Of a stretch of DNA of 32,000 nt, positions 2,890 to 32,000 are shown piece by piece. Both the position numbers and the translations under genes were made by a program. The first letter of the stretch is position 1. Every line of letters begins with the position of its first letter. Origin of the DNA: Kiritimatiella glycovorans (GTDB taxonomy: Bacteria; Verrucomicrobiota; Kiritimatiellia; Kiritimatiellales; Kiritimatiellaceae); NCBI RefSeq assembly GCF_001017655.1, contig NZ_CP010904.1, positions 1,830,001 through 1,862,000 on the forward strand. The letters run 5' to 3'. The notes beneath the pieces were generated by a model. The model did no database searches. It saw nothing but the letters and a program-made list of their open reading frames with translations, and was not told the DNA's origin.

Positions 2890-2890
2890 G

Positions 2891-5845: not shown

Positions 5846-5860
5846 ATATCCCTCTCTTTT

Positions 5861-5911
5861 CAATGACCAATGACCAATGACTGCCGCGTAGCGGCCAAAT
5901 GACCAATGACC
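5861..5911. repeat. Heptamer-hairpin element: (CAATGAC)x3 - GCCGC GTA GCGGC - CAAATGACCAATGACC
   Basis: Read directly. It fills the tonB-TPR intergenic gap. Confidence 0.9.
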
Positions 5912-5914
5912 TCT

Positions 5915-6586
5915 TTAGTCCAGTTTGAATGCGACCTTCTGCCGCACGCGCGTGGCCACCGCATCCCCGTCTTTGGTTCCGGGAGTGAAGCGCCAGCGTT
6001 CTATTGCGCGGACAGCCGCCGTCGCAAAGATGTCGCCCGGTCGCGATGAAACCACAACGATGTCCCGCGCCGTACCTTCCGCATTCACAATGAACTCGAC
6101 GACGACCTCCCCCTCGATCCGGCGCATCCTGGCCTGAGGCGGGTAGATGGGCTTGAGACGTGCAAGCGGTCGTGGCGGTTCGTCCAGATCGCTGATCTCG
6201 AACACAAGCTGCCTGACTTGCTCGCCCAGTGAATCAGCGGATATCCCGAAATCCACGCTGAAGTCCCCGCCAACATCGCCGATGGCCATGCCGAGGTCCA
6301 TGGCCGCCTGCATTGGGGCAAGCCGACGGCGGAGTTGTTGCATCTCCGGCTTTGGCGTTTGCGGCTTCGCCTCGGCGGCTCTCTTCTCGATACGTGGCGG
6401 CGGAGGCGGTGGTGGCGGCAGCTTGGCCGTGGTTACCGACCGGACGGAGGCCGCTTTCTCGGGAGGCGCGGAGAGCGTTTCAAGATACGGCAGAAGGAGA
6501 TACACACCGAGTGATACCGTGCCGGCCAGCACTACAGAGCGCCACGTCCAGCGAGGTGCGAAAAAACTGGAGAGGTCATTGGTCAT
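5915..6586 (-). CDS. tonB: TonB-family energy transducer
   Basis: It has an N-terminal TM helix (SVVLAGTVSLGVYLLLPYL), a Pro-rich spacer (KLPPPPPPPPRIEK...PQTPKPE), and a C-terminal TonB domain (YPPQARMRRIEGEVVVEFIVNAEGTARDIVVVSS...ATAAVRAIERWRFTPG). The ATG lies inside the heptamer repeat (ATGACCAATGACC). Confidence 0.85.
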   Translation of the reverse strand: MTNDLSSFFAPRWTWRSVVLAGTVSLGVYLLLPYLETLSAPPEKAASVRSVTTAKLPPPPPPPPRIEKRAAEAKPQTPKPEMQQLRRRLAPMQAAMDLGMAIGDVGGDFSVDFGISADSLGEQVRQLVFEISDLDEPPRPLARLKPIYPPQARMRRIEGEVVVEFIVNAEGTARDIVVVSSRPGDIFATAAVRAIERWRFTPGTKDGDAVATRVRQKVAFKLD

Positions 6587-7067
6587 TGGTCATTTGCGCC
6601 TTCGTCGCGTCATTTGTATCCCATTCGGGGCCGGATTCCTTTACGCGGACTGTTGTCGGACCGATCGACTTGATGTAGGCGTTGAGTCTGCGGCCGAGCG
6701 TATCCAAAGCGCTACTCAGTTCCTGGAATGCCTCCTTCTCGATCAGGGATCGGTGGTGAGCTTTGTTGAGCCATGTTTTCGCTTCAAAGAGGGAACCTCT
6801 ACTGTAGTAGCCGTATTGCTTGTTCTCCTTGTGATGGAAACGTCCGAAGCCTTCGCTCAGATTCGCTGCCATCGAGTCTGCCGCCCGAACCCACTGCTTC
6901 CCCACTGTGTCCTTTGCGAAGAAATCCCACTTCGCGACAATACCCCACACCACTTCCCCAATCCGCATCGCCTCTTGATACACTTCCAGTTCTTCCAATC
7001 GCATTTCCATATCCTCCCTCCAATGACCAATGACGCGGGCGGAGCCCGCAAATGACCAATGACTAAT
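6574..7067 (-). mobile_element. Four-helix-bundle gene cassette bounded by ~45-bp imperfect inverted arms (IVS-like; no transposase)
   Basis: The left arm, 6574-6616, is GGTCATTGGTCATTGGTCATTTGCGCCTTCGTCGCGTCATTTG. The reverse complement of 7021-7067 is ATTAGTCATTGGTCATTTGCGGGCTCCGCCCGCGTCATTGGTCATTG. A deleted derivative with the same arms is at 31391-31517. Confidence 0.45.
6576..7010 (-). CDS. Four-helix-bundle protein (23S rRNA intervening-sequence protein / Avd-like family)
   Basis: MEMRLEELEVYQEAMRIGEVVWGIVAKWDFFAKDTVGKQWVRAADSMAANLSEGFGRFHHKENKQYGYYSRGSLFEAKTWLNKA is the characteristic motif set of this family. GGAGGGAGG lies upstream, and an alternative ATG is at 7004. The C-terminal tail and TGA stop lie inside the heptamer repeat. 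The track start at 7085 reads through the repeat and is rejected. Confidence 0.85.
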   Translation of the reverse strand: MEMRLEELEVYQEAMRIGEVVWGIVAKWDFFAKDTVGKQWVRAADSMAANLSEGFGRFHHKENKQYGYYSRGSLFEAKTWLNKAHHRSLIEKEAFQELSSALDTLGRRLNAYIKSIGPTTVRVKESGPEWDTNDATKAQMTNDQ

Positions 7068-7470
7068 CCCGCCGCGAAGCGGCAATACTAACCTGCTTGG
7101 CTCCGGCCAGCTTGCATTCGTCGATCACGTCCACCAGCGGCGAGGTACGAGCGTCGCCATCGGCCAGAATAATCACAGGCGATTCCTTCTCTCGGAGTTG
7201 ACGTGCCACAACGCCGCGTACGCCGTTGACGCCGATCTCGCGTCCCCCGAACACGACCCTTCCGTCAGCCGTCAGCGCAATCATGATGCTGTGTTTGTCC
7301 ATGTCCTGAGCGCTCGCCGCCTGGGGCTTCTGGATCTCGACGCCGGTCTCCTCAACGAAAACCGTCGTCACGATGAAGAAGATCAGCAGGAGGAACACGC
7401 AGTCGATAAGGGGCGACATGTTGACCTCGACCCCACGTTCCGCCTGTTCGCTCAACGTGACGCGTTTCAT
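7063..7470 (-). CDS. exbD: ExbD/TolR-family biopolymer transport protein
   Basis: NMSPLIDCVFLLLIFFIVT TM helix followed by a periplasmic domain, 135 aa. Its start has a 4-nt overlap with the end of the preceding exbB-like gene. The TAG stop lies inside the repeat (GAT TAG TCATTGG). Confidence 0.9.
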   Translation of the reverse strand: MKRVTLSEQAERGVEVNMSPLIDCVFLLLIFFIVTTVFVEETGVEIQKPQAASAQDMDKHSIMIALTADGRVVFGGREIGVNGVRGVVARQLREKESPVIILADGDARTSPLVDVIDECKLAGAKQVSIAASRRD

Positions 7471-8105
7471 CGTTCCGTACCTTCTGTCTCATATTCCAGA
7501 GTCTGTAACGCATGGCTTCGACATTCCGCGATGACCACATGGGCGTTCCGCAGCATGCGCTGCAAGCGGGCCAGTCCGAATACGCCGGGCAAGGCGACCA
7601 CAAGCCCGAACTGGGTCGTGATCAAGGCCTGGCTGATACCGGCAGCCACGCGTGTCCCCGTGTTGCCGCCGATAGCCGCAACCGCATCGAAGGTTTGAAT
7701 CATGCCCATGACCGTTCCCAGCAGTCCCAGCAATGGCGCGATGGCAGTCAAAGCCGCCAGCACAAGAACATCCCGCCGCATAAGCTCCATGCATTCGTTC
7801 TCGCGTGCCGCGAATGCTTCTCGGGGCGCTGCCCCGCCAAGCACGTCGGTCACCGCCGCCGAAACCATGGTCGCGATTCCGCCGGGGATTGCGCGCAACC
7901 CCTCGACAAGAGGGCGCGCGGGCCCGCCCAACGCGCCACTGTGTAGCGCGTTCCTCACGACCTTGCCATCACGAATCGTTCGGGCCAGCAACTCGCGCGA
8001 ACGCAGGAACAGCCCCCAGATTCCGAGGCACACGATCCCGATAGGCAGCAGCAACGGCCCGCCCGCTCCCCAGTACGCCACCGTCTGTTCGAGCCATTCG
8101 TTCAT
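7467..8105 (-). CDS. exbB: MotA/TolQ/ExbB proton-channel protein
   Basis: LTAIAPLLGLLGTVMGMIQTF...ISQALITTQFGLVVALP signature; 212 aa. It has ATGA-type overlaps with both neighbours. Confidence 0.9.
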   Translation of the reverse strand: MNEWLEQTVAYWGAGGPLLLPIGIVCLGIWGLFLRSRELLARTIRDGKVVRNALHSGALGGPARPLVEGLRAIPGGIATMVSAAVTDVLGGAAPREAFAARENECMELMRRDVLVLAALTAIAPLLGLLGTVMGMIQTFDAVAAIGGNTGTRVAAGISQALITTQFGLVVALPGVFGLARLQRMLRNAHVVIAECRSHALQTLEYETEGTER

Positions 8106-9502
8106 CCGTCGATGCCTCGCACCTTGATATCGTTCACGATGCCCACGGCTGCGCGTTCAAGCGCACCGATAATGCCGCGAGCCCGCCGTGCCAGGAAGGC
8201 ATGCACAAGCAAGACCGGGATCGCAATGGCAAGGCCCGTCTCGGTCGTGACAAGCGCTTCAGAGATGCCGCCGGAGAGAAGCTTCGCGTCACCCGATCCA
8301 AAGATCGTGACAAGCTGGAACGTATGAATCATGCCCGTCACGGTTCCGAGCAGGCCCAGCAAAGGCGCAATGCCGCCGAGTACGGCCAGTGTGCCCAGAT
8401 TCCGTTCGAGCCGGGGCAGCGATGTGAGGACATGTTCATGCATGATCTCTTCGAGATGATCGCGCGGCGAGTCGCGGTGCTCGATGGCTTCCTCGACGAG
8501 CGACCGTAACGGCGGCTTGATTCCCGACGCCGCCTCGCGGGCCGCAGCCGTATCGCCCCGTCTTGCGGCTTCAATAGCGACAGCAACATCTTTGCCGGGT
8601 TGCACTCGGATGCCGCCAAGCTCCACGGCTTTCCAGATTGCCAGGGCGACAGCGATCACTGCCACGACCAGCAACGGAATCATCACGAAGCCGCCCTTCC
8701 TGACATGCTCCAGAAATGTCGGTTTTGCATCGGCGACCTTGATTGCATCACCAGCGGTGACATCTATCGGCACGCGTGCAGCGTCACCGGCCACCAGGGC
8801 CCGGATAGCGGCCGTCTGTGTGTCCGGGATGCGATCGTAGATCGCGGGTTGCGTCGCGCCGAACTGGGTCACCGCCAGACCCGTGGGGCCGTCGCCATCT
8901 GCGTCGAACCAGGCCACCGGGCCAAGCGTCGCGAAGCGTCCCTGTCGTTCGATCCCGTTGCCATCCAGGGCGACCCCGTCAAACAGGCATCCCCCGAACC
9001 GCTCGGCATTCCAATCCTCCGACAGCGCGAGCAGATCGCCGATGGCCTTAGCGAAACCGTCCGTCGTCTCTTCTGTTGCCAACGTCGTCTGTACAGGACG
9101 CAGTCGTTCGACAAGCCGCGCGCCTTCGGCTGCTCCGACCCGCGTTTCCATAGCACGGGCATATTCGACGAAGAGAGCGATCAGGAAATGGCATTCCTCT
9201 TCCACCGCAGTCGCTTCCGCTTCCAGCGCGGCCTGCTCCTTCTCCCCCTGGGTCCTGAGCCGCCGGATTCGTTGCACGTCGGCGCGGCGTTGTTTGACGG
9301 TGGCTTGCAGGGCCTCCAGTCGCTCCGCCAACGGCCGCCGCTGCTCCGCGATTCGCGCGCGAAGCTCGTTCAGTTCCTGGGTATCCCTCTCAATGTCGGC
9401 CTTCGCTTGAAGAACGGCGGACGACACCGTGTCGGGTTCCGATGAAACCGCTCCATCCGCCAAAACCGGGTGAAGAAGCGCGAGAAAAGCAAACCCACAC
9501 AT
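8102..9502 (-). CDS. Large MotA/TolQ/ExbB-family protein with a long coiled-coil periplasmic N-domain (TtpC-like)
   Basis: The C-terminal part reads GGIAPLLGLLGTVTGMIHTF...ISEALVTTETGLAIAIPVLL. The N-terminal ~300 aa are coiled-coil. I prefer the start MCGFAFLALLHPVLA at 9502. The track start at 9580 adds 26 residues encoded entirely by the repeat element (see findings). Confidence 0.8.
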   Translation of the reverse strand: MCGFAFLALLHPVLADGAVSSEPDTVSSAVLQAKADIERDTQELNELRARIAEQRRPLAERLEALQATVKQRRADVQRIRRLRTQGEKEQAALEAEATAVEEECHFLIALFVEYARAMETRVGAAEGARLVERLRPVQTTLATEETTDGFAKAIGDLLALSEDWNAERFGGCLFDGVALDGNGIERQGRFATLGPVAWFDADGDGPTGLAVTQFGATQPAIYDRIPDTQTAAIRALVAGDAARVPIDVTAGDAIKVADAKPTFLEHVRKGGFVMIPLLVVAVIAVALAIWKAVELGGIRVQPGKDVAVAIEAARRGDTAAAREAASGIKPPLRSLVEEAIEHRDSPRDHLEEIMHEHVLTSLPRLERNLGTLAVLGGIAPLLGLLGTVTGMIHTFQLVTIFGSGDAKLLSGGISEALVTTETGLAIAIPVLLVHAFLARRARGIIGALERAAVGIVNDIKVRGIDG

Positions 9503-9572
9503 GGCCAATGACCTGCCTTCGCCAAGGCTGCGGCGGAGCCGCCAAATGACCAATGCCCAATGCCCAATGACT
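9503..9572. repeat. Heptamer-hairpin element with two hairpins (GCCTT CGCC AAGGC and GCGGC GGA GCCGC) plus AAATGACCAATGCCCAATGCCCAATGAC
   Basis: Read directly. It lies between the DUF3450-like gene and the TtpC-like gene. Confidence 0.9.
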
Positions 9573-9576
9573 CCTC

Positions 9577-10356
9577 TCATGGCTCCACCTCCTCGGCGAC
9601 CTGCATGGGAAGCACTACGAGCTGCGCGGTCTCCTGCCGGTTCAGAGTGTCAATCGCACGTCGAACGGACTGCCCGTCTCCAGTGGATGGCGTCCATGTC
9701 CAGCCCGCATCGGCGGGTACTCCCACCGCAGCCCAATCGTTCCCCGGGGAAACCGCGAACGCTCGTGCCAGCCCGACATAGAGCACGTCCACCCGTCGAC
9801 GTTCGCCCTCGACATCCAGTGTCTCGCGTGTCGCATGGAATTGGTTCTGGAGTGTCTCGATCTGCGTGTAGAGCGCCGCCACGGTCTGAGCTCGCTTCGT
9901 CAGCGGCAGTCTCTCCGCTTCCGTCTGCGTCGAAGGCAGTGCGTCGAACCCGGTGACCGACGCCATCAATCCCGACGGTATCCGTGTGCGCCATCGGCGC
10001 AAATCGGCCTCGGCGCGATCCAATACAGCGCGAAGCTTCAGAAGCTCGGCGTCCATGTGCTCTTTGCGCGCCAACGCTGCCGCACGCTTCCTCTCGACCG
10101 TTGAGGCGAACGTTTCGCCGTCGTCGATCTCCTCCTTGAGCGTCTTGGATTCCTGTTCGAGGAGTGCGATCTCTTCTTCCCACTGCTCCCGCCGTGCATC
10201 CCAATCGCGTTTCTCTTCTGCAATGGTTGTGCGTAGTGCCATCCAGCGGCCGACCAGCGCATCGAGCTGGTTCAGCGAGCCATCTCCTCCATCTGCCCGC
10301 GCCAGCCACGGAAGCAATATCATCCCCGCCAGCATTACTCGCCTTGCTCGTGTCAT
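9577..10356 (-). CDS. DUF3450-like periplasmic coiled-coil protein (TtpB-like first gene of the TonB2-type module)
   Basis: Signal peptide MTRARRVMLAGMILLPWLARA, then a long coiled coil, then a C-terminal ...VDVLYVGLARAFAVSPGNDWAAVGVP...WTW region typical of the family. It sits directly upstream of the TtpC-like gene. An alternative start is Met8 at 10335. The first ATG belongs to the repeat. Confidence 0.7.
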   Translation of the reverse strand: MTRARRVMLAGMILLPWLARADGGDGSLNQLDALVGRWMALRTTIAEEKRDWDARREQWEEEIALLEQESKTLKEEIDDGETFASTVERKRAAALARKEHMDAELLKLRAVLDRAEADLRRWRTRIPSGLMASVTGFDALPSTQTEAERLPLTKRAQTVAALYTQIETLQNQFHATRETLDVEGERRRVDVLYVGLARAFAVSPGNDWAAVGVPADAGWTWTPSTGDGQSVRRAIDTLNRQETAQLVVLPMQVAEEVEP

Positions 10357-10497
10357 TGGTCATGTCCTCGCTTTGCTCGTCATTGGTCATTTGCGGGCTT
10401 TGCCCGCGTCATTTGCTCACTTTGTTCGCGTCATCGGTCATCAGTCATTAGTCATCGGTTGTCTCCTCCATTGACCAATGACCAATGACTAATGACC
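10352..10497. repeat. Composite heptamer-hairpin array (GGTCATT-orientation units, then GGAGGAGAC, then AATGACC-orientation units)
   Basis: It contains GCGGGC TTT GCCCGC and the degenerate spacers CTCGCTTTGCTCG and CTCACTTTGTTCG. It is homologous in unit order to the array at 15213-15343. Confidence 0.9.
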
Positions 10498-10983
10498 ACT
10501 TCTGTAGTCGCGCACGCCGCGCCTCCGTGCCGTGTCGTCCCCGACCTCCTCCTGCCAGCCTGAGCGGACGTTTTCTCGAAGATCGTAGCGGGCAATGAAG
10601 GGTTTGATATCCAGCAGAGGGGTGCCGTCCAGAACGTCCAGATCCTCCACGTGCAGCGTGGTGCCTTCTATCGACAGCAACCGCACGACGCTGAAACCGA
10701 TATGGTTGGGACGGAACGGGGCGCGCGTGGCAAACACGCCCCGTTCCTCATCCTGAAGGTACGGGCGTACTCGGAGCTTCACCTGTTCTGCGCGGTGGAA
10801 GCGATACAGCAAGTAGACATGGGAGAACCCATCAAGGTCGAGCAGACCATCCGCGTACGCATCGTCCACCGTGACCGTGCCGCGAATCCCGCTGGCAAAC
10901 ACGGGCTGGATAGGCGTCTCTTTCGGGTTCTTGTGAGGTGAATGGATTTGTCCGATAGGCTCGATGGCAAACATGTCGTTCAT
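10489..10983 (-). CDS. trmO: tRNA (m6t6A37) methyltransferase TrmO/TsaA (YaeB family)
   Basis: IEPIGQIHSP...DLDGFSHVYLLYRFH...RAPFRPNHIGFSVVRLLSIEGTTLHVEDLDVLDGTPLLDIKP is the classic TsaA-like beta-barrel motif set. It has an ATGA overlap with the upstream SPFH gene. The last codons and the TAG come from the repeat (AGT GGT CAT TAG). Confidence 0.9.
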   Translation of the reverse strand: MNDMFAIEPIGQIHSPHKNPKETPIQPVFASGIRGTVTVDDAYADGLLDLDGFSHVYLLYRFHRAEQVKLRVRPYLQDEERGVFATRAPFRPNHIGFSVVRLLSIEGTTLHVEDLDVLDGTPLLDIKPFIARYDLRENVRSGWQEEVGDDTARRRGVRDYRSGH

Positions 10984-15212: not shown

Positions 15213-15343
15213 ACTCGCTTTGCTCGTGTCATTGGTCATTGGTCATGTACTCGCTTTGCTCGTGTCATTTACTCACTTCGTTCGGGTCATTGGTCATTGG
15301 TTGCATCACGCGCCGCAGGCGCCAATGACTAATGACCACTGAC
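15213..15343. repeat. Composite heptamer-hairpin array
   Basis: ACTCGCTTTGCTCGTGTCATTGGTCATTGGTCAT occurs twice, followed by TCATTTACTCACTTCGTTCGGGTCATTGGTCATTGG, the hairpin GCGCC GCA GGCGC, and CAATGACTAATGACCACTGAC. It overlaps the ATPase stop. Confidence 0.9.
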
Positions 15344-17251
15344 CTCCAAATCCTCCAGATCCTCGCCTTCCCGAACGAGGCGAGCGGAGTTGACGATCAC
15401 GATGAACGTGCTTGCCGTGTGCAGCAGGACCGCGACGACGGGATGGATGATACCTGTTGCGCTCAAGGCGAGCATGCCGACCACGTACACGCTCGAGAAC
15501 ACTAGGTTCTGCCGCACCACGGAGGTCAGGCGGCGTGCCAGGTGGAAAAGGAAGGGAATACGATTCAGTTCGTTGTTCAGCAGAGCCATACGTGCCGCAT
15601 GGATCGCGGCTTCGCTACCAGCCGCACCCATGGCAATCGAAAGATCGGCTTCGGCGAGCGCCGGCGCATCGTTGATCCCGTCTCCGACGGCGGCAACAAG
15701 CCCCTCGTCGGCACGAAGACGCTTCACCGCATCCATCTTCTGTCCTGGGAGCAGTTCGGCGACCACATCCGTGAACGTCAGATGCCTGGCGACCGCCTCC
15801 GCCACAGGCCGGCGGTCTCCCGTCAACATGACACAATGCGACACGCCTTCATCCCTCAACTGGCCGACGACCTCGGAGGCACCGGGCCGCAACTCGTCTT
15901 CCAGGACTACCCGTCCGAGCAGGTTCCCGTTTTTTGCGATGAGAACCACGCTGCCCTGACGGTCGTCCTCGTCGGATTCAGATGCCATCTTGACGCCTGC
16001 ATCGATCAAGAACTCGCGGCGACCAGCCAACACCGTGTTACCACTCAAGACGCCACGGACGCCCCTGCCGGGCTCTTCCTCACAGTTCCGGATGTCGGCT
16101 GGGTGTATCTCTCGCTCTCGCGCGGCGCGCACAATGGCCTGTGCAGCGGGGTGGTTCGAATGCGCTTCGATGCCTGCCGCGAAACGCAGTAGCTCGTCCT
16201 CGGTAACTCCGTCGGCAGGTTGCAGGCCCACGACATGCAGACGCCCGCGAGTAATGGTGCCCGTCTTATCGAACACCACAGCCTTGATCCTCCCGGCGAT
16301 TTCGAGATCGGCAATGTTCTTGATCAGAATGCCCAGGCGCGCGGCGGCGCTGAGCGCCGCAACGGCCGCGGTCGGGCCGGAGAGGAGGATCGCGCAGGGG
16401 CAGGCCACAACCAGCATGGCAACCGTCCGATCCATGTCGCGTGTGAAGAAGAGCACGATGGAAGCCAGAATGAGCACCAGCGGCGTGTACCAGCCGGCGT
16501 AGCGGTCGACCAGACGCATGACAGGAGTGCGGGTGGCTTCGGCCTCCAGGATCAGCGAGCGCACTTGCTCGAGGGTTGTGTCCTGCCCCGCCCGTCCGAT
16601 CTCAACGTCCAAGACGCCCGTTACGTTCACCGTGCCCGCAAAGATGGAATCGCCTTCTCCCTTCTCAACGGGAAGGGACTCGCCGGTGATCGTCGCTTCG
16701 TTGAGCGTGCTTCGTCCTGCCACGATGATTCCGTCTCCCGGCACCAATTCCCCAGGCCGAACGCGGATACGCTCTCCGACGCTGAGCGCAGCCGCTTCCA
16801 CCGCTTCCTCTCCCGATGGCGTGATGCGGCGCGCCGATGCGGGGCGGAGGCGAATGAGCGCCTCAATGCTCCTTCGCGCGCCGGATGCCGAGCGGTCTTC
16901 GATCATGTTCGAGATCTGCACGAAGAACGCCACAGCGGCGGCAGTGAGATGCTCCCCGGCAGCAAACGCCGCACCGATTCCCAGCGCCGCCATGACGTTC
17001 AGATTGGGTCGGCTCAGAGCCAGGTCGCGCATGGCCGTTGCCACTAAGGGAAGACCCAGTACGACGGCGGCCGCTATTGCCACGATGTCCGCGTGGAACG
17101 GGTGCGCGAAGAGCCGCGACGCAATCAGAGCCGCCAGCAGCAGCATGCCGCCAAAGAGAAGAACGACGGTCCGCAGCGTAGCTGCAGGCCGATGAGCATC
17201 GCTGCTACCATTGGGGCTGGCAGATGGATTCTCTGAGTAGTCAGTTGTCAT
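15329..17251 (-). CDS. Heavy-metal-translocating P1B-type ATPase (CPC motif; no N-terminal HMA/CxxC domain)
   Basis: Motifs seen: TGESLPV (A-domain), VVACPCAILLSGP (TM CPC), DKTGTIT (phosphorylation site), HSNHPAAQAI (HP), MLTGD, GDGINDAPAL. Four predicted TM helices precede the A-domain. There is no GMxCxxC metal-binding domain. Confidence 0.95.
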   Translation of the reverse strand: MTTDYSENPSASPNGSSDAHRPAATLRTVVLLFGGMLLLAALIASRLFAHPFHADIVAIAAAVVLGLPLVATAMRDLALSRPNLNVMAALGIGAAFAAGEHLTAAAVAFFVQISNMIEDRSASGARRSIEALIRLRPASARRITPSGEEAVEAAALSVGERIRVRPGELVPGDGIIVAGRSTLNEATITGESLPVEKGEGDSIFAGTVNVTGVLDVEIGRAGQDTTLEQVRSLILEAEATRTPVMRLVDRYAGWYTPLVLILASIVLFFTRDMDRTVAMLVVACPCAILLSGPTAAVAALSAAARLGILIKNIADLEIAGRIKAVVFDKTGTITRGRLHVVGLQPADGVTEDELLRFAAGIEAHSNHPAAQAIVRAAREREIHPADIRNCEEEPGRGVRGVLSGNTVLAGRREFLIDAGVKMASESDEDDRQGSVVLIAKNGNLLGRVVLEDELRPGASEVVGQLRDEGVSHCVMLTGDRRPVAEAVARHLTFTDVVAELLPGQKMDAVKRLRADEGLVAAVGDGINDAPALAEADLSIAMGAAGSEAAIHAARMALLNNELNRIPFLFHLARRLTSVVRQNLVFSSVYVVGMLALSATGIIHPVVAVLLHTASTFIVIVNSARLVREGEDLEDLEVSGH

Positions 17252-17284
17252 TGGTCATGCACTCGCTCCGCTCTCGTCACTTGA
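17241..17284. repeat. Degenerate heptamer element (TCAGTTGTCATTGGTCATGCACTCGCTCCGCTCTCGTCACTTG)
   Basis: It resembles the CTCGCTTTGCTCG-type units at 10352-10385 and 15213-15275. It contains the ATPase ATG. Confidence 0.7.
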
Positions 17285-19735: not shown

Positions 19736-19759
19736 CTTGAAATTCTCCCCTGTTGGTAG

Positions 19760-19994
19760 ATTGGTCATTGGTCATTTGGCCGCTGCGCGGCCGTCATTGG
19801 TGATTGGTCATCGGTCATTGGCCATTGGTCATTTGCGCCTACGGCGCGTCAATAGTCATTGGTCAATAGTCATTGGTCATTTGCGCCTGCGGCGCGTCAT
19901 TGGTCATTGGTTCTGGGTCATTGCCGCGAATGACTGATGACTGCGGGCGAAGCCCGCAAAATGACCAATGACTAATGACGCGGCCGAAGGCCGC
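19760..19994. repeat. 235-bp array of five heptamer-hairpin units (three in one orientation, then two inverted)
   Basis: Hairpins are GGCCGC TGC GCGGCC, GCGCC TAC GGCGC, GCGCC TGC GGCGC, GCGGGC GAA GCCCGC and GCGGCC GAA GGCCGC. They are separated by runs of GTCATTG / AATGAC heptamers. The array fills the whole gap between the small Cys/His protein gene and the receptor gene. Confidence 0.9.
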
Positions 19995-19995
19995 C

Positions 19996-20391: not shown

Positions 20392-20497
20392 ACACAAAAC
20401 AAACGCGCTCTATCTCAACCAAGTTTGGGGCGCCTAACATACAACCAGCTACGGCAGGGGTCAATCCCAAATGGCGTGTGGCAAGCGGCATGAGAAG

Positions 20498-21691: not shown

Positions 21692-21728
21692 ACCTACCGT
21701 GTGGCAAGCGGCAGAGGAAGGAACTGTC

Positions 21729-21772
21729 ACCAATGACCAATGACGCGGCGAAGCCGCACATGGCTCATGACC
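21729..21772. repeat. Heptamer-hairpin element (CACCAATGACCAATGAC GCGGC GAA GCCGC ACATGGCTCATGACC)
   Basis: Read directly. Confidence 0.85.
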
Positions 21773-21786
21773 GAGCGATTTGGGTA

Positions 21787-21814
21787 TTGACAAGGTCATA
21801 TATATCTGTATTCT
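21787..21814 (+). promoter_or_regulatory. Sigma-70-like promoter candidate TTGACA-16 nt-TATTCT, 7 nt before the ATG of the DUF4143 ATPase (near-leaderless)
   Basis: A consensus -35 hexamer within a locally AT-rich patch of a GC-rich genome. There is no Shine-Dalgarno sequence between it and the ATG at 21822. Confidence 0.3.
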
Positions 21815-21821
21815 GACCATT

Positions 21822-22970
21822 ATGTACACCAGATTACTGAAGCAACCATGGGCCACTGGACAGAGTTTCTTCCTGTTTGGCCCGCGAGGTACAGGAAAGA
21901 CGACCTGGCTGCATCGGGGTCTCGATGCCGAAGGCAGTCTCTACCTCGACCTGCTGAACGACGACCTGTATACCGAGCTGCTGGCTCGGCCGCACCGGCT
22001 GGACACGTTGGTTGGCGATCGGCGCTGGGACTGGGTCGTGCTGGACGAAATCCAGCGCGTTCCCGCGCTGCTGAATGAAGTGCACCGGCTCATCGAGAGC
22101 CGGGGACTCCGTTTCGCCATGACGGGTTCCAGCGCCCGAAGCCTGAGACGCAGGGGCACGAATCTACTGGCCGGGCGCGCTCTTACGTTTCACATGCACC
22201 CGCTGGCCGCGGCGGAACAGGGCGAGGACTTCGACCTCGCCCGCGCCATTCGGTTCGGACAGCTTCCGGGCGCACTGAAGAGTGCGGCGCCGGATGCACA
22301 TCTTGCGTCCTATTTCCGCACCTACCTCCGCGAAGAAGTCCAGGAGGAAGGTCTGACGCGTCGACTGGGGAACTTTGCCCGTTTTCTTGAAACGGCGAGT
22401 TTCTCTCAGGGCTCCCCGCTCAACGTCTCCGCCGTGGCCCGGGAAGCGGCCCTTGACAGGAAGGTTGTGAACAACTACTTCGGCATCCTGGAAGACTTGC
22501 TCATCGGTCATCGGCTGCCGGCATTCACGAAGCGCGCGCGACGCAGGCTGACGTCGCATCCCAAGTTCTACTTCTTCGATGCGGGCGTGTATCGCTCGAT
22601 ACGCCCCATGGGGCCTCTGGACAGTCCCGAAGAAGCGGAAGGCGCCTGCCTGGAGACGCTGTGCTATCAGGAGCTGCGAGGCGTCAACGACGCGCTCGGC
22701 TTGGGATATGACCTGTACTATTGGCGCACAAGCGACGGCACGGAGGTCGACTTCGTGTTGTACGGCAAGGCCGGCATTCTTGCCTTCGAAGTCAAACGAG
22801 CCGCCCGCTACACCGCGAAGGACTTGAGCGGCTTGCGCAGTTTCAAACGCGACTACCCCTCCGCGCGCTGCTTCCTGCTGTACGGCGGGCATGACCGCCG
22901 CCAGGAGGGGGATATCCAGGTCTGTCCTCTCGATCAGACATTGCCCGCGCTTCCCGCCATACTTGCTTGA
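21822..22970 (+). CDS. AAA+ ATPase with a DUF4143 C-terminal domain (AAA_14 family)
   Basis: FLFGPRGTGKTT (Walker A) and WVVLDEIQRVP (Walker B). Later motifs FARFLETASFSQGSPLNVSAVARE and YYWRTSDGTEVDFVL are typical of DUF4143 proteins. The start is chosen at MYTRLL. Confidence 0.9.
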   Translation: MYTRLLKQPWATGQSFFLFGPRGTGKTTWLHRGLDAEGSLYLDLLNDDLYTELLARPHRLDTLVGDRRWDWVVLDEIQRVPALLNEVHRLIESRGLRFAMTGSSARSLRRRGTNLLAGRALTFHMHPLAAAEQGEDFDLARAIRFGQLPGALKSAAPDAHLASYFRTYLREEVQEEGLTRRLGNFARFLETASFSQGSPLNVSAVAREAALDRKVVNNYFGILEDLLIGHRLPAFTKRARRRLTSHPKFYFFDAGVYRSIRPMGPLDSPEEAEGACLETLCYQELRGVNDALGLGYDLYYWRTSDGTEVDFVLYGKAGILAFEVKRAARYTAKDLSGLRSFKRDYPSARCFLLYGGHDRRQEGDIQVCPLDQTLPALPAILA

Positions 22971-22994: not shown

Positions 22995-23007
22995 TATGCC
23001 GCGTGAC

Positions 23008-23400: not shown

Positions 23401-23482
23401 TTTGCCGTTCTACCTGCGGCGGATCCCCCATTGTGACAGTCCCCCAGGGACTGCTGTCTCAACATGCAGGATATCGAAGGAT

Positions 23483-26542: not shown

Positions 26543-26545
26543 GCT

Positions 26546-27697: not shown

Positions 27698-27711
27698 GAA
27701 GGGGCATGGGT

Positions 27712-27733
27712 CCATGGTCATTGGTGATTGGTG
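27712..27733. repeat. Short heptamer run (CCATGGTCATTGGTGATTGGTG)
   Basis: Read directly. Confidence 0.7.
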
Positions 27734-27769
27734 CGGCAAAGAGAAGACAGGAACATGGAGGATAGGCGG

Positions 27770-28357
27770 ATGAAGAAGAGATGGCTTGGATTGATGGTAG
27801 TGGCTGCGATGGTCGTCGGCGTGGGGTGCGGGAAGAAGGCGGAGCAGGGCTCGGTCGAGCCGGTAGCCGTGCCCAAGGCGTTTGTCAGTGAAGAGCCGGC
27901 CGGAGAGCCGACACCGATCCCTGAAGCACGCAAGCTGCCACCGGGGACGGATGTGCTTCTCAAAGGGCTCGTCATGGGTGTGCGCAGTCCGTTTGTCGAG
28001 GGCCGCGCCCTGTTCATTCTCGGCGACGAAGCCACGATCACGCCGTGCAACGCCAAAGACGATGACCATTGCTCCATGCCCTGGGACGCCTGCTGCGATC
28101 CGCTCGAGGTGCGTGCCGCCGGCACGGCGGCGATACAGGTGCTGGACGATACGGGCGAGGTTTTGGAGCAGGGCCTCAAGGGCGTGAACGGCCTCAAGGA
28201 ACTGAGTCGCGTGACCGTCGCCGGCGCCGTGGCGCCACACTCGACGACGAACGCATTCGTCGTCAACGCCGCGTCGTTGTACGTGGAGCCCGAAGCAAGC
28301 AACCAACCAGAAGCCAAAGACGCCCACGCAACCTGCCCGAGCTGCCCCGCAAAGTGA
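27770..28357 (+). CDS. Cys-rich putative lipoprotein embedded in the efflux operon (195 aa)
   Basis: MKKRWLGLMVVAAMVVGVGCG is a signal peptide with a lipobox-like Cys. GGAGGA precedes the ATG. There is a Cys/His/Asp cluster (TPCNAKDDDHCSMPWDACCDP) and a C-terminal HATCPSCP. I recognise no family. Confidence 0.65.
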   Translation: MKKRWLGLMVVAAMVVGVGCGKKAEQGSVEPVAVPKAFVSEEPAGEPTPIPEARKLPPGTDVLLKGLVMGVRSPFVEGRALFILGDEATITPCNAKDDDHCSMPWDACCDPLEVRAAGTAAIQVLDDTGEVLEQGLKGVNGLKELSRVTVAGAVAPHSTTNAFVVNAASLYVEPEASNQPEAKDAHATCPSCPAK

Positions 28358-28367
28358 TGCAGGCCAC

Positions 28368-28431
28368 AAATGACCAATGACCAATGACTAATGACCAGTG
28401 ACCGCCGCGCAGCGGCCAAATGACCAATGAC
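28368..28431. repeat. Heptamer-hairpin element (AAATGACCAATGACCAATGACTAATGACCAGTGAC CGCCGC GCA GCGGC CAAATGACCAATGAC)
   Basis: Read directly. Its last ATG is the start codon of the TolC-like gene. Confidence 0.9.
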
Positions 28432-29773
28432 AAAAACCCGCACATTCGTGGCCATCGCGCTCCTGACCGTATGCTTATCGCCAGCCGAGGGAAGCAGCAC
28501 AAACCGTGTCCCGTCCCTTCCAACCTGGGGCGAGGCGGTCGGTAGGGCCGAGCTGGACGCGTGGATCGCGGCCGCCATGGTGGCTGCGCCTTCACTGGAC
28601 GCCGCGGAGCGAGCGGTACGCGTGGAGGCCGCGGGCGGCAGGGCGGCGCGTTCCGGGCGTTGGCCCGATCTCACGCTGGAAGGCGACCTGCGCGCCGGCC
28701 GGCGGAATACCGCGATGACCGGCGGAGAGACGCTTGACGTCGAATCCGTGGCCGCCCGCGCGTCGGCCGCATGGGACCTCGATGTCTTCGGGCGAGTGCG
28801 CGCCGAAGTCGGCGCCGCGCGCTTCGCGGAGCTGGCCGCCGACCACAGGCGGCGTGACCGCCGGATCGCCTTCGCAGCCGACATGGCGGAAGCGTACGTG
28901 CTGGGGCGTCTCTGGAACGACCGCCTTCGGATCCGTGACGAGGCCGTGGCGGCGCACGATGCCCTGGTCAGGTACGCGGACGGCCGAATGAAGGTAGGCC
29001 TGGCCCTGCCGGCCGAGCGCGACCGTCTCGAGGCCGAGCGACAGGCCGCCAGGCAGCAACGGGTACATGCGCAGGAAGAGATATCCGATCTCGACGCACG
29101 GTGGCGCTACCTCGTGCCGGAATACGAGGCGCCGGATCTGCACTCGCTTGGCGGCCTCTCGTCCGCCGAGCCTGTTTCCGCTCCGCCGGAGACGGCGATC
29201 CATGCGTATGCGGTGAATCGCCCGGATGTCCTGGCCGCGCACGCCCTCTGGCAGGCGGCGGGGGAAGGGGCGCGCGGCGCCGCGCGCAACCGGTTGCCGA
29301 CGGTGTCCGCCATCGTAACGGCCGAGGGCGAGGGCCCGTCCCCCGTTGACGAACCCGAAGCCTGGACTGCCTGGGCGGGCGTGCGCCTGTCCCTTCCCGT
29401 CCTGGCGCCGGGTCGTTCAGCCCAGGTAAACATCCGGCGGGAAGAAGCACACATCCAGGAGGCTCTGTTCGAAGAGACCGTGGCCCTGGCGATTCGGGAC
29501 ATCCGTCAGGCCTACGCGCGCCGACTCCACGCTGAACAGGCATGGCGTGCAGCGCAGGTCTCCGCCGACCGCCTGCGGGAGTCGTTCGAATCTTTCAAGC
29601 GCCAGTTCGAGCAAGGACGTGTGCCGGTTCCCACCGTCGAGCGCGCGAAGCTGGACTGGCTCGCCTCCGAAGAAGCGATGCGCGTCCGTTATGCGGAAGT
29701 CCTCCTGCGCCAGGTCGATCTCGTCCGTGCATGCGGCGGCCCAACAGACACGGCACTCCACTCCGGCAACTGA
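28427..29773 (+). CDS. TolC-family outer-membrane efflux protein
   Basis: Signal peptide MTKTRTFVAIALLTVCLSPA. The two-repeat helical/beta pattern is typical of the OMF family (LDAAERAVRVEAAGG...WPDLTLEGDL...; later PDVLAAHALWQAAGEGARGAARNRLPTVS). It is the last gene of the efflux operon. Confidence 0.85.
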   Translation: MTKTRTFVAIALLTVCLSPAEGSSTNRVPSLPTWGEAVGRAELDAWIAAAMVAAPSLDAAERAVRVEAAGGRAARSGRWPDLTLEGDLRAGRRNTAMTGGETLDVESVAARASAAWDLDVFGRVRAEVGAARFAELAADHRRRDRRIAFAADMAEAYVLGRLWNDRLRIRDEAVAAHDALVRYADGRMKVGLALPAERDRLEAERQAARQQRVHAQEEISDLDARWRYLVPEYEAPDLHSLGGLSSAEPVSAPPETAIHAYAVNRPDVLAAHALWQAAGEGARGAARNRLPTVSAIVTAEGEGPSPVDEPEAWTAWAGVRLSLPVLAPGRSAQVNIRREEAHIQEALFEETVALAIRDIRQAYARRLHAEQAWRAAQVSADRLRESFESFKRQFEQGRVPVPTVERAKLDWLASEEAMRVRYAEVLLRQVDLVRACGGPTDTALHSGN

Positions 29774-29806
29774 GCCAGGCGGAAGCACCGCGCGCGAACG
29801 CGCCCG

Positions 29807-29908
29807 GTGGTCGTCTTGACGGGTGCCCGACAGACAGGCAAGACTTCCTTGGTCCAACGGCTGTTTCCTGCTTATAGCTATGTGAGCCTGGATCTGCCGG
29901 ACCATGCT
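29807..29908 (+). pseudogene. N-terminal fragment (about 34 codons) of a DUF4143/AAA_14 ATPase gene
   Basis: VVVLTGARQTGKTSLVQRLFPAYSYVSLDLPDHA matches the Walker A region of this family. After it the frame degenerates (TSSLRSCSVTWLICREK). Confidence 0.5.
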
Positions 29909-30041
29909 ACATCTTCCCTCCGGTCGTGTTCTGTCACCTGGCTGATTTGCCGGGAAAAAACATGTCGGCCCGGGTACACCGCCGAGACGACGCCAGACAA
30001 CACCGTCAAGGCTGCCTGCCTTCTCAAACGGACACGCGCAT

Positions 30042-31337
30042 TCATGATCTCTGCGCCTCTTCACAACCTGACAGCAGGTAACGCCAGGCGGGAATGGAGT
30101 TGGGTTCGGCCTCGGACAAACCCGGCGCATACTCGTGGTAAACCAGGTGTCCCCGTGCCTCGGGCCAAAGGGTCCTTCCGAACTCCATGACGTTCTTCTC
30201 GCGCTCGAATGCGGCATCGTCGGCCAGGCTCCAGCACGTGTTCGCAAACCAGGCGCCCTCGCCGTCGCACAGGTCGACTTCATGAGCATTCGAGTAGTAG
30301 TAGAGGTCCCGACGGCGTCGGCGAGCCTCCAGAAAGACGGCCGTCTCCAGCTTGTGGCCGACGTCGCGCTGGGGGTATGCCTTGAAAGCCGCGACGAGAC
30401 CGGGGTCGATCACATGCAACTTCTTGGGATTGTGCTCCTGCTTGCGCAACGACTCGTCGCGTTTCGGCACCATGAAGACCAGAGACGCATCCTTCAGGCA
30501 GCCGAGGTACTCGTGCAGCGTGTTCTTCGACACCGCCAACCCCAGCGATTTGAAGTCACGGTGTAGCTTGCTGACGTTGATCAGCGATGCCGTGTTCCGA
30601 AAGCAGTACCTTAACAGGGTTCGCATGACCTTCTCGTTCCGTACTCCATAACGCTCGACCACGTCCCTGAACAACATGAGCGAGGCGTACTCCTCCAGGA
30701 TCAAGGGGCGCAGCGGCGCCTCGGCGAGCACGATCTCGGGGAAGCCGCCCCATGTCAGATACTCGACAAGCTCCGCGCGCGCGCGGCTCTCGTCGCGAGC
30801 GCTGAACGAGGATATCTCCACCTCTCGAAACGAGAGAAACTCCCTGAAGCTCAGGGGAAACACCTCCAACGTGATGCTGCGTCCCCGCATTGCGGCAGAC
30901 AGGTCGCGGGCCAGAAGCCGGGAGGACGAACCGGTAACAAAGATCGATATATCCTCGGTATCTTTAAGCCGCCTGACCCAACGCTCCCAGCCGGGTACGT
31001 CCTGCACCTCGTCCAGAAAGAGGTAGGTCTTGCCGGAGGCCGTATCGGGGTACAACTCGTTCAGGCTGCGAAGCACAAGATCCAGTTCTTCGGCGCGCAC
31101 GGGGTGCAGGCGATCATCCTCGAAGTTCAAGTACACGAGCTGTCGCCGGTCCACGCCTTGCCGGACGAGCCGGTGCATGGCGTCGAACAGCAGGAACGTC
31201 TTTCCGGAGCGGCGCGGCCCCGAAAGCCCCACCACTTTGCCGGTGTCCGCCGGGAGAGATCTATCGCGAGGACGACAAACCGGCAATTCGCCTTCGATGA
31301 ACTGGCGCAACACATACTTCAGATTGTAACTGTTCAT
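30042..31337 (-). CDS. AAA+ ATPase with a DUF4143 domain (AAA_14 family), second intact copy
   Basis: VVGLSGPRRSGKTF (Walker A), YLFLDEVQDVPGW (Walker B), a DUF4143-like middle region, and a C-terminal YYYSNAHEVDL restriction-endonuclease-like motif. Confidence 0.9.
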   Translation of the reverse strand: MNSYNLKYVLRQFIEGELPVCRPRDRSLPADTGKVVGLSGPRRSGKTFLLFDAMHRLVRQGVDRRQLVYLNFEDDRLHPVRAEELDLVLRSLNELYPDTASGKTYLFLDEVQDVPGWERWVRRLKDTEDISIFVTGSSSRLLARDLSAAMRGRSITLEVFPLSFREFLSFREVEISSFSARDESRARAELVEYLTWGGFPEIVLAEAPLRPLILEEYASLMLFRDVVERYGVRNEKVMRTLLRYCFRNTASLINVSKLHRDFKSLGLAVSKNTLHEYLGCLKDASLVFMVPKRDESLRKQEHNPKKLHVIDPGLVAAFKAYPQRDVGHKLETAVFLEARRRRRDLYYYSNAHEVDLCDGEGAWFANTCWSLADDAAFEREKNVMEFGRTLWPEARGHLVYHEYAPGLSEAEPNSIPAWRYLLSGCEEAQRS

Positions 31338-31390
31338 AGCGACAATATAGATACTCCCGTCCCTTTATGCAAGGACAATCTCGCATCTCG

Positions 31391-31517
31391 TTGGCCATTT
31401 GCGGCTTCGCCGCGTCATCGGTCATGGGTATCCCATTCCGGGCCGTTTCCTTTGTGGGCCTCTCACTCATTCAATCGCACTCCCATATCCTCCCACCATT
31501 GGCCAATGACCAATGAC
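31391..31517 (-). mobile_element. Gene-less ghost of the four-helix-bundle cassette (both arms retained, interior of about 370 nt deleted)
   Basis: In minus sense, GTCATTGGTCATTGGCCAATGGTGGGAGGATATGGGAGTGCGATTGAATGAG aligns to the cassette 5' end, GTCATTGGTCATTGGAGGGAGGATATGGAAATGCGATTGGAAGAA. AAAGGAAACGGCCCGGAATGGGATACCCATGACCGATGACGCGGCGAAGCCGCAAATGG aligns to the cassette 3' end, AAAGGAATCCGGCCCCGAATGGGATACAAATGACGCGACGAAGGCGCAAATGA. Confidence 0.7.
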
Positions 31518-31612
31518 GGCCGCGCAGCCTGCCCGCATTGCCCGCCCGCAACGCTGGCGCGTAGCGACTGCGGGCAGGCTCCGCAAAGCGATGTAGGCGG
31601 GCGGCCAAATGA

Positions 31613-32000
31613 CTACTGATTACACTCCCGGCAAACACCCAGCACGGTGATCCGGTGCGCTCGCTGCTTGAAACCCGCCTTGCGGCAGGCGATGGCGATG
31701 CGCTGGTGGATCTTGGGGTCGAGGAACTCGATGAACTTCCCGCACTGCTCACAGATCAGGTGCTCATGGTCTTCGAATCCCAGGGTCCGGTCGTAGTGCA
31801 CCTCGCGACCGGCTTCGCGGATCTCGCGCAAGAGACCGGCACGAACCATCAGGCCCAAGGTCTGGTACACGGTGCCACGGCTCACACGGGCCGGGCCGGC
31901 ATTGCTCAGATCCATGGCAAGCTCCTCGGCCGTGAAATGGCCGTCGCCTCTGAACACGCGATCGCAAACAATCCGGCGTGGCTGAGTGACCCGCAGACCC
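31613..32000 (-). CDS. Fur-family metalloregulator (Fur/Zur/PerR-type); the 5' end runs off the right edge
   Basis: Winged-helix part FTAEELAMDLS...VSRGTVYQTLGLMVRAGLL, the metal-site motif DHEHLICEQCGKFIEF, and a second CxxC (CRECN). The frame stays open to position 32000 (GLRVTQPRRIVCDRVF upstream of the track Met). The TAG stop is followed by TCATTTGGCCGC from a repeat. Confidence 0.85.
   Translation of the reverse strand, partial: GLRVTQPRRIVCDRVFRGDGHFTAEELAMDLSNAGPARVSRGTVYQTLGLMVRAGLLREIREAGREVHYDRTLGFEDHEHLICEQCGKFIEFLDPKIHQRIAIACRKAGFKQRAHRITVLGVCRECNQ

Follow-up and report, generated by a model that had tools for sequence, protein, structure and literature searches.

Inverted arrays of heptamers and triloop hairpins enclose a PF05635 gene in the exbD–tonB operon of Kiritimatiella glycovorans and recur at gene junctions around it

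The DNA considered here is a 32,000-nt stretch of the Kiritimatiella glycovorans genome (the window, to which our statements on the repeat family apply unless stated otherwise), in which tandem heptamers (AATGACC, or GGTCATT on the complementary strand) and small G/C hairpins occupy most gaps between genes. Two inverted copies of this heptamer-hairpin module enclose a gene for a small four-helix-bundle protein, which we refer to as the intervening-sequence protein (IVP) gene after its Pfam family and the sequence of which weakly matches PDB 2GSC. Neither this gene with its inverted arrays nor an internally deleted copy of it near the other end of the window featured in an earlier note, made from the sequence alone, that had described the repeats. 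The parts of the two copies are as follows.

6579-7010, minus strand: IVP gene, four-helix-bundle protein (PF05635 23S_rRNA_IVP and TIGR02436), between exbD and tonB
7011-7065, minus strand: upstream arm, (GTCATTG)2-T-GCGGGC/TCC/GCCCGC-(GTCATTG)2-GAGGGAGGAT-ATG, overlapping the ExbD stop TAG (7065-7063)
6574-6615, minus strand: downstream arm, GCGAC-GAA-GGCGC hairpin and (AATGACC)3, holding the IVP stop (6579-6577) and the likely TonB start (6586-6584)
31380-31620, minus strand: internally deleted IVP cassette (gene copy 31380-31520) with both arms kept, recognized by alignment to 6560-7075, tblastn and fold

On the sense strand of the IVP gene the upstream arm runs GTCATTgGTCATTt-GCGGGC/TCC/GCCCGC-GTCATTgGTCATTg-GAGGGAGGAT-ATG into the open reading frame (ORF), and the downstream arm runs GCGAC/GAA/GGCGC-aAATGACcAATGACcAATGACc, the two flanks therefore being inverted copies of the module. 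The arms pair with one another in both the minimum-free-energy and the centroid RNA fold, and the energy of their duplex is -53.5 kcal/mol, compared with -34.4 ± 4.2 kcal/mol for shuffled partners. Between the window and its orthologue on metagenome contig L108 the identity of the IVP gene at the three codon positions is 0.89/0.93/0.74 (0.96/0.96/0.68 for ExbD), which points to purifying selection on the gene. The deleted copy has lost the interior of the gene and retains its two ends, some 55 nt (3') and some 45 nt (5'); between AATGACG and CCAAATGAC, in the exact position of a triloop hairpin, it carries a long GC-rich palindrome, GCAGCCTGCCCGCA...TGCGGGCAGGCTCC, at 31520-31606. An extra triloop hairpin, GCCGC-GAA-GCGGC, lies at 7071-7083 in the last exbD codons (..ASRRD*), just outside the upstream arm of the intact cassette. 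We also considered the arm-bracketed ORF at 27728-28357 (209 aa) as other cargo and rejected it, as it appears to be an ordinary efflux-operon lipoprotein with no family match.

The repeats themselves had been described as a dense family of heptamers and G/C triloop hairpins, intergenic and in both orientations relative to transcription, and on all these points our counts agree. AATGACC occurs 34 times over both strands, compared with 2.78 ± 1.57 (maximum 8) in dinucleotide-preserving shuffles, and Tandem Repeats Finder returned period-7 arrays at every site that had been listed, with higher-order periods of 22, 27, and 48 nt also present. By a gene map that combines ORFs, codon-position GC content and Pfam matches, 91% of the window is coding and only six of the 64 AATGAC/GTCATT hexamers are more than 15 nt inside a gene, the remaining 58 lying outside gene interiors. 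From 5.8 to 32 kb there are 16 real intergenic gaps, of which about 12 carry the module. Hairpins of G/C only, with a 5-bp stem and a 3-nt loop, number 37 (10.6 ± 3.2 in shuffles), and 15 of them fall inside the 1.4 kb around the arrays, a concentration of about 15-fold. Our scan placed the hairpins within 1–2 nt of the coordinates given earlier (5-bp cores at 5883, 7036, 9530, 10394, 15310, six in 19779-19991, 21745, 28404, and 31401), and small arrays at 17247 and 27716 extend the list.

Both the arms and the loops are polar. All 19 orientable hairpin units of the window present an R-N-A loop on the ATGAC strand (14 G-N-A and 5 A-A-A), with AATGAC on the 5' side of the hairpin and (C)AAATGAC on the 3' side; the stems vary freely in sequence (GCCGC, GCGGGC, GCGCC, and others), while loop class and heptamer position are fixed. 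Units that contain CTCGCTTTGCTCG or CTCACTTCGTTCG had been taken for decayed ones. On the ATGAC strand these read CGAGCAAAGCGAG and CGAACGAAGTGAG and form hairpins with a tandem G.A mismatch, beside which there is a compensatory change from G-C to A-T, and the same tandem-G.A unit recurs in the unrelated metagenome loci L031 and L063. They are a conserved structural variant and not products of decay.

Searches for more familiar identities of the modules were negative. Rfam at gathering thresholds matched nothing in the window and nothing in the first 20 related loci (described below); the modules therefore fall outside the curated RNA families and outside rRNA. No tRNA or tmRNA genes were found. 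Intrinsic terminators were rejected (the array hairpins are without T tails, none was reported, and terminator-like sites are as frequent as in shuffles), as were promoters (no promoter-like enrichment at the arrays, site counts again at shuffle expectation) and CRISPR, which is ruled out by the period of 7–22 nt and the lack of unique spacers.

The remaining sites of the module, and the genes among which they lie, are listed here.

5850-5914, minus strand: solo arm that takes up all of the gap between TonB and TPR; mRNA-strand sequence (GGUCAUU)2-U-GCCGC/UAC/GCGGC-(GUCAUUG)3, then a Shine-Dalgarno (SD) sequence
9503-9576, minus strand: solo arm with a GCGGC-GGA-GCCGC hairpin, in the DUF3450–ExbB-long gap
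10352-10497, minus strand: ORF-less paired arms, consisting of a GTCATT arm, an SD, ATG ACT AAT GAC TGA and an AATGAC arm
15222-15345, minus strand: paired arms without an ORF, in the gap from the P-type ATPase gene to Band7-long, with the ATPase stop TAG in a GTCATTA unit
17247-17275, minus strand: short array, GTCATTGGTCATG and one CTCGCTCCGCTCTCG unit, at the P-type ATPase gene start
19755-19995, minus strand: the largest site, between DUF2946 and the TonB-dependent receptor; its paired arms contain six hairpins and the 48-nt higher-order repeat
21729-21757, plus strand: solo AATGAC arm with a GCGGC-GAA-GCCGC hairpin, between the IS30-like and AAA_14/DUF4143 genes
27714-27735, plus strand: short arm (GGTCATTGGTGATTGG), upstream of the gene for the lipoprotein (27728-28357)
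28369-28432, plus strand: solo AATGAC arm of 5 units, a GCCGC-GCA-GCGGC hairpin and 2 units, the last unit supplying the likely ATG of the outer-membrane efflux protein (OEP) at 28427
Minus-strand genes: TPR, TonB, 23S_rRNA_IVP protein, ExbD, ExbB, long ExbB, DUF3450, TrmO, three SPFH/Band7, P-type ATPase, TonB-dependent receptor, DUF2946
Plus-strand genes: IS30-like, AAA_14/DUF4143, HlyD, ABC ATPase, two MacB, lipoprotein, OEP
Final genes of the window, minus strand: a second AAA_14/DUF4143, then Fur at the window edge

Two of the three ORF-less paired-arm sites, in each of which a GTCATT arm is followed by an AATGAC arm, fold far better as RNA than their shuffles. At 10352-10497, where the AATGAC arm combines one G/C hairpin with three tandem-G.A hairpin units, the fold contains a 25-bp stem (z = -7.2), and the largest site reaches -101 kcal/mol compared with -71.3 ± 4.8 kcal/mol when shuffled (z = -6.2); the fold of the third, at 15222-15345, is weak (z = -1.9). 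The 48-nt higher-order repeats (4–5 heptamers and one hairpin) stand in tandem 2.5 times at 19803-19923 of the window and at least four times at positions 1-220 of L108, and the arrays therefore expand by super-units as well as by single heptamers.

Codons of the arrays are used as starts and stops by host genes. It had been pointed out earlier that three consecutive AATGACC units put an overlapping ATGA in all three reading frames, while the GGTCATT strand holds no stop. The arithmetic is right, as AATGACC contains both ATG and TGA and the period is 7; the second statement is true of GGTCATT itself and breaks down for the common variant GTCATTA, which makes the TAG that, by inspection of the sequence, ends both the ExbD and the P-type ATPase genes. 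The IVP gene stops at the TGA of the third downstream unit, 4 nt beyond the TonB ATG. From that ATG the TonB protein begins MTND (ATG ACC AAT GAC), directly followed by the conserved LSxFFAPRWTWRSV, and the TonB of the array-free contig L111 begins LTTQALSPFAPRWTWRSV. The OEP, read from the ATG of the last unit of its array, begins MTKTRTFVAIALL (MTKTRTF...) with a signal peptide. For TonB and OEP, the array ATGs are the best candidate start codons. The TonB-dependent receptor and Band7-long more likely start at an internal ATG that has an SD of its own. This has a practical side for annotation, as starts such as that of TonB sit in repeats that gene callers may treat as non-coding. The idea of frame independence also gains from related loci, where the dominant short period at 59 loci, not all fully independent of one another, is 7 (16 loci), 8 (5), 10 (24), or 11 (14) and never 9 or 12, a striking avoidance of multiples of three that would fit selection for having start and stop triplets in every frame.

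The history of the arrays can be followed in metagenome contigs that carry the same operon and whose ExbD is 97%, 94%, 92%, 86%, and 84% identical to that of the window. At 94% (L108/L109) an intact IVP gene occupies the same exbD–tonB gap; the arrays there are much longer, with about 20 GTCATT units upstream and more than 12 AATGAC units downstream of the gene and 9 units between TonB and TPR, and a 48-nt higher-order repeat lies upstream of exbD. At 97% (L023) the gap holds an internally deleted IVP remnant (MMLEELDVYQ... joined to the 3' arm), and a second, truncated IVP copy lies between exbB and exbD. At 92% (L025-L027) there are arrays at the DUF3450–ExbB-long gap (5 units and no hairpin in L025), between TonB and TPR and upstream of TonB, and in the exbD–tonB gap a GIY-YIG ORF, bounded by other inverted repeats of 38 nt, stands in place of IVP. 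Copy number changes rapidly, ranging from 2 to about 20 units at these gaps in close relatives, and both it and hairpin sequence vary freely between these relatives: the TonB–TPR arrays of L023, L025, and L108 have 3 to 9 units with other hairpins or none, the stem being GCCGC/GCGGC in the window and CACGC/GCGTG in L025. The operons of the 86% and 84% relatives (L110 and L111/112) contain no arrays, and in L111 the exbD–tonB gap is 4 nt and the DUF3450 and ExbB-long genes overlap. The compact state is therefore ancestral and the arrays are insertions into it. Third-codon identity between operons with arrays at the same gaps is 0.41–0.63, so the arrays have persisted across near-saturated synonymous divergence.

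Other repeats of similar design were seen in these contigs. The GIY-YIG ORF of L025 (163 aa) is bracketed at 10440-10500 and 10900-10950 by an inverted repeat of about 38 nt, GGTCATCCCGAGCGGAGCGAAGCGGAGTCGAGGGATCTC, the outer ends of which are again GTCAT...ATGAC, and an ORF-less pair of the same repeat at 9240-9330 fills the gap between ExbB-long and ExbB; this looks like a second family of small-ORF cassettes with miniature derivatives. At 150-630 and 1300-1350 of L023 there is a second, unrelated-looking four-helix-bundle remnant, MDTSYRDVEDLDVYQRL..., flanked by a CTGAACA / TGTTCAG heptamer, which hints that different PF05635 subfamilies pair with different repeat units. At 1400-1600 and 7560-7760, in other intergenic regions, L111 carries inverted 8-mer arrays, ACCCAAAT/ACCCAAGG against CTTGGGTA/TTTGGGTG, together with a few AATGAC units, possibly yet another type of arm.

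The association of gene and arrays extends well beyond this operon. Array-encoded C-terminal tails (..TNDQ, ..MTND, or ..SNDQ, i.e., translated AATGACC) were found in 42 of the best 120 IVP homologues (up to 94% identity, all PF05635) and in none of 120 ExbD homologues taken as a control, and several homologues read through a hairpin as well (NDAPQAPMT from AAT GAC GCG CCG CAG GCG CCA ATG ACC). Alignment of 37 homologues led to 80 metagenomic loci (L028-L107) with relatives 49–67% identical. The arms at these loci have the same polarity as in the window: within 150 nt of the gene GTCAT reaches 21.9/kb upstream and ATGAC 25.4/kb downstream, compared with 4.4 and 2.4/kb for the opposite orientations in these flanks and 1.4–1.8/kb in the rest of the loci (an enrichment of 12–15-fold). 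At least two GTCAT stand upstream in 58 of 78 loci and at least two ATGAC downstream in 67 of 78. The conserved core of the unit is AATGAC, with A at -1 in 90% of units, while spacing and filler depend on the lineage. Hairpins (GCGAAGC, GGCGAAGCC, GCCCGCAGGGC, and others) are again interleaved in the arms, and 119 of the 133 triloops on the ATGAC strand are R-N-A (GAA 58, GCA 29, GTA 12, AAA 11), the complementary T-N-Y class being nearly absent there. The duplex between the two arms is better than that of shuffles at z < -2 in 44 of 76 loci.

These cassettes are co-oriented with the host gene that precedes them: the nearest ORF has the direction of the PF05635 gene in 58 of 64 loci upstream and in 31 of 48 downstream. 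The 112 neighbor genes are ordinary ones for metabolism and information processing, with matches to 142 Pfam families, and no transposase, reverse transcriptase, integrase, or HUH enzyme was found among the 25 commonest of these families. No transposase is adjacent to the cassette of the window either, and the earlier statement that the window holds no RAYT-like gene (REP-associated tyrosine transposase; REP, repetitive extragenic palindrome) is borne out by the Pfam calls, which show none beside the modules. Arrays were also found elsewhere: a pattern of hairpin plus AAATGACCAATGAC matched 22 loci in a genome collection, mostly in Verrucomicrobiota, Planctomycetota, and Kiritimatiellia metagenome-assembled genomes (MAGs) and none of them in the source genome, and (AATGACC)3 occurs in 29 of about 2.9 million viral contigs. 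Restriction of the motif to the window, the outcome by which the earlier note would have given up its element family, is thus not what we see.

We give about an even chance to the reading that the modules are the REP-like arms of small, widespread cassettes of the intervening sequence (IVS) type, most sites in the window being ORF-less or single-arm derivatives. A full cassette consists, on the sense strand, of (GGTCATT)n with C-UNC-G hairpins, an SD, a PF05635 gene of about 130 aa, and C-GNA-G hairpins with (AATGACC)n. Because of the loop polarity we read the unit as a polar DNA module, made of AATGAC and a G/C stem capped by a G-N-A triloop, of which both arms would be inverted copies, the upstream arm being the one that is turned round. 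The DNA mini-hairpin d(C-GNA-G) is exceptionally stable, which hints at a single-stranded DNA (ssDNA) stage. By analogy with the IVSs of 23S rRNA, read-through of the host operon would transcribe the cassette as well, the arms of the cassette would pair into a long RNA stem, and this stem might be processed by RNase III, for which reason the insert would be tolerated. The AATGAC arm would serve as a stop/restart adaptor independent of frame, as the rule on periods and the TonB and OEP starts suggest: with a period that is not a multiple of three, TGA and ATG occur in every frame, and the flanking genes would stay terminated and re-initiated. Slippage or unequal recombination would lengthen and shorten the arrays. 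Candidate routes of spread are recombination or gene conversion between arrays and an unlinked ssDNA enzyme or other trans-acting factor. The four-helix-bundle protein is the obvious candidate for a partner of the repeats, as RAYT is for REP, and may be a nucleic-acid-binding adaptor like Avd.

Several points weigh against this reading. Seen from the gene the arms are near-obligatory, but seen from the arrays the gene is rare: the window, with about 13 sites, has one intact IVP gene and one deleted, no IVP gene lies within 8 kb of any of the 22 genome loci, and none of the 29 viral-contig loci has one nearby (the small number of these contigs, and their lack of the gene, also led us to reject viruses as the vector). 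A homologue on a cyanobacterial plasmid (Pseudanabaena, 39% identity), the sole plasmid homologue, is without arrays. The excess of arrays fits the ratio of autonomous to non-autonomous elements, as for RAYT and REP, and equally well a gene subfamily that colonizes independent arrays. We found no mobilizing enzyme, no target-site duplication, and no recent insertion polymorphism of a whole cassette, and the cassette between exbD and tonB is old and has been inherited vertically. Solo arms fold with z about 0 and have no structure past the small hairpin, processing of the arms by RNase III is argued by analogy, and the metagenomic loci are not phylogenetically independent.

The first alternative, doubtful in our view but a serious rival, is that the arrays are autonomous, of the type known from cyanobacteria as short tandemly repeated repetitive (STRR) sequences, that they originate and grow in intergenic DNA by slippage and are kept for a service to the host, and that the four-helix-bundle gene is one of several passengers. 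Possible services are as stop/start adaptors in any frame, as spacers for translational coupling, or as multivalent sites for RNA- or ssDNA-binding proteins. The gene-free arrays at 22 genome and 29 viral-contig loci argue for it, as do the occupation of the same gaps despite near-saturated synonymous divergence, the provision of TonB and OEP starts, the avoidance of periods that are multiples of three and the exbD–tonB gap of L025, where an ORF with inverted repeats of its own lies beside an AATGAC array; heptamer arrays upstream of starts in Beggiatoaceae have moreover been proposed as sites for post-transcriptional regulators (PMC4679880). Strict polarity in about 75–85% of 78 loci would however be hard to obtain if the gene landed randomly in existing arrays, and both orientations occur in mRNAs, contrary to a single binding function at the RNA level. 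The operon of distant relatives works with 4-nt or overlapping junctions, so that the host has no evident need for arrays.

It is improbable that the repeats are REP/BIME-like (BIME, bacterial interspersed mosaic element) or REPIN-like (REPIN, REP doublet forming hairpins) and mobilized by a RAYT (IS200/IS605-type HUH Y1) or another ssDNA-hairpin enzyme encoded elsewhere, with the IVP gene irrelevant. They are extragenic, dense and in both orientations, with small G/C hairpins beside a conserved short motif, and the strand-polar G-N-A loop and stability of d(C-GNA-G) would suit an ssDNA intermediate; but neither the window nor the 25 commonest families of the 112 cassette neighbors include a Y1 transposase, the gene that the inverted repeats bracket is PF05635 and not RAYT, and tandem heptamers are not a REP feature.

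Even less probable is that the arrays are contingency loci that tune surface and transport genes (the TonB system, the TonB-dependent receptor, the efflux pump) or operator arrays of a Fur-like metalloregulator: copy number does vary among close relatives (5 against 9 units at TonB–TPR, up to about 20 at ExbD–IVP), period 7 shifts the reading frame, the arrays of L023 and L025 cluster in the TonB operon and a Fur gene lies at the window edge, but the arrays are outside ORFs save for the first few codons, so that frame-shifting of coding sequence does not apply, they are intercistronic and not in promoters, with no promoter-like enrichment in our scan, and they also flank SPFH/Band7, TrmO, and P-type ATPase genes and elsewhere gyrB, DprA, and NADH dehydrogenase. 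A loose likeness of AATGA...TCATT to Fur-box half sites was set aside because the arrays are intercistronic and next to unrelated genes.

To return to the cassette reading, a bolder form of it, which we consider rather unlikely, is that PF05635 proteins are the dedicated trans-acting partners of a REP-like class not recognized before (AATGAC, with TGAC as its core, plus C-GNA-G) and that the two form a new mobile cassette that inserts at the junctions of genes in Kiritimatiellota, Verrucomicrobiota, Planctomycetota, Bacteroidota, and others, which keeps host translation going by means of frame-independent ATGA arrays and is the origin of the cyanobacterial STRR heptamers. There is a realistic chance that this is the first example to be recognized of a distinct system of repeat and partner protein, and a full-text literature search found no paper that links PF05635 genes with heptamer arrays. 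A selfish insert built in this way can sit in an essential operon without breaking it, as stops and starts are supplied in every frame. We regard the finding as computationally solid.

A few further features of the window were noticed. The first 5.8 kb contains no arrays; here a large serine recombinase (Resolvase, Recombinase and Zn_ribbon_recom; ORF 2-2554, minus strand) gives way to DNA of 69–72% GC without Pfam matches or heptamer arrays. Positions 1-4500 are probably an integrated foreign element that marks the left limit of the array-rich region. Each AAA_14/DUF4143 gene is directly preceded by a module, the one at 21780-22970 (plus strand) by the array 21729-21757 and the one at 30042-31337 (minus strand) by the deleted cassette 31380-31620, an adjacency that may be coincidence as most gaps are occupied. 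The IS30-like gene (HTH_38 and rve, 20542-21654) has direct GTGTGGCAAGCGGCA copies on both sides, at 20465-20485 and 21698-21716, which probably belong to the ends of the insertion sequence.

Set against known systems, the element fails the defining traits of each: it is not cyanobacterial, no RAYT or GTAG was seen, it is not in rRNA, and no target-site duplication was found. To our knowledge PF05635 proteins of the S23p/Avd-like kind are so far without a function outside diversity-generating retroelements (DGRs), and they are encoded by some of the commonest unexplained small genes in Bacteroidota, in PVC bacteria (Planctomycetota, Verrucomicrobiota, and relatives), and in cyanobacteria. Members of the family are encoded in 23S rRNA IVSs, the inverted-repeat borders of which form a stem cut by RNase III (PMC4990558), and Avd, the accessory protein that serves as an adaptor for the DGR reverse transcriptase, is a relative of the family (PMC10053308). 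With the IVSs that contain an S23p ORF (Leptospira, Coxiella) our cassette shares the protein family, inverted repeats that can pair into a long terminal stem, and probably carriage within a host RNA; these IVSs are held to be selfish and are sporadic in distribution (PMC4990558). It differs in its location, which is an mRNA at an operon junction (exbD/tonB) and not helix 9, 25, or 45 of 23S rRNA (by Rfam, no rRNA lies beside the first 20 related loci), in having tandem AATGAC arrays with G-N-A mini-hairpins where the IVS has a unique 28-bp stem, and in its numerous dispersed ORF-less arms. Of the traits of a miniature inverted-repeat transposable element, inverted arms and internal-deletion derivatives are seen, and a target-site duplication and a transposase were not identified.

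RAYT was tied to REPs diagnostically through its bracketing by inverted copies of the repeat, and the present system likewise has one protein gene bracketed by inverted copies of a dispersed repeat. The bracketed gene here encodes a small four-helix bundle without a known catalytic motif, unlike the HUH transposase of REPs; tandem heptamers dominate, and no GTAG-type tetranucleotide adjoins the hairpins. The likeness to REP/BIME that had been proposed earlier stands as far as small, dispersed, extragenic palindromes are concerned, whereas the "very different sequence logic" ascribed to the repeats is not without precedent: the reverse complement of the cyanobacterial heptamer STRR2, TTGGTCA, is AATGACC circularly permuted. 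A short extragenic palindrome beside a conserved motif, in both orientations and as singlets and inverted doublets, is also how REP/BIME and REPIN elements occur (PMC3116915 for REPINs).

Small dispersed repeats of Nostoc are reportedly tiny hairpin-forming units of 21–27 nt within tandem heptamer repeats, with defined family sequences, whereas the stems here vary freely and the loop class and heptamer position are fixed. STRR sequences are said to be tandem, intergenic, variable in copy number, and able to extend the helices of structured RNAs, and we know of no function assigned to them since 1990. The arrays of the window share with them the form of tandem heptamers in non-coding DNA at many loci, but STRRs belong to (heterocystous) cyanobacteria, and our arrays to a member of the Kiritimatiellota of 62% GC, with related ones in Verrucomicrobiota and Planctomycetota MAGs; regular interleaving with G/C triloop hairpins and polar association with PF05635 are likewise seen here. 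TAACTGA direct repeats of Beggiatoaceae, some Cyanobacteria, and Bacteroidetes are also intergenic, in 2 to 43 copies, mostly just upstream of starts where they replace the SD, with a patchy distribution across phyla and no known mobilizing mechanism (PMC4679880); theirs is another heptamer, for which hairpin units and an associated gene were not reported (PMC4679880). Heptamer arrays of these kinds (STRR, TAACTGA, and their relatives) have been catalogued for 35 years without an origin or function, and the link to a cassette may explain them; the polar association of arrays with PF05635 across phyla offers a testable handle on both the repeats and the protein family.

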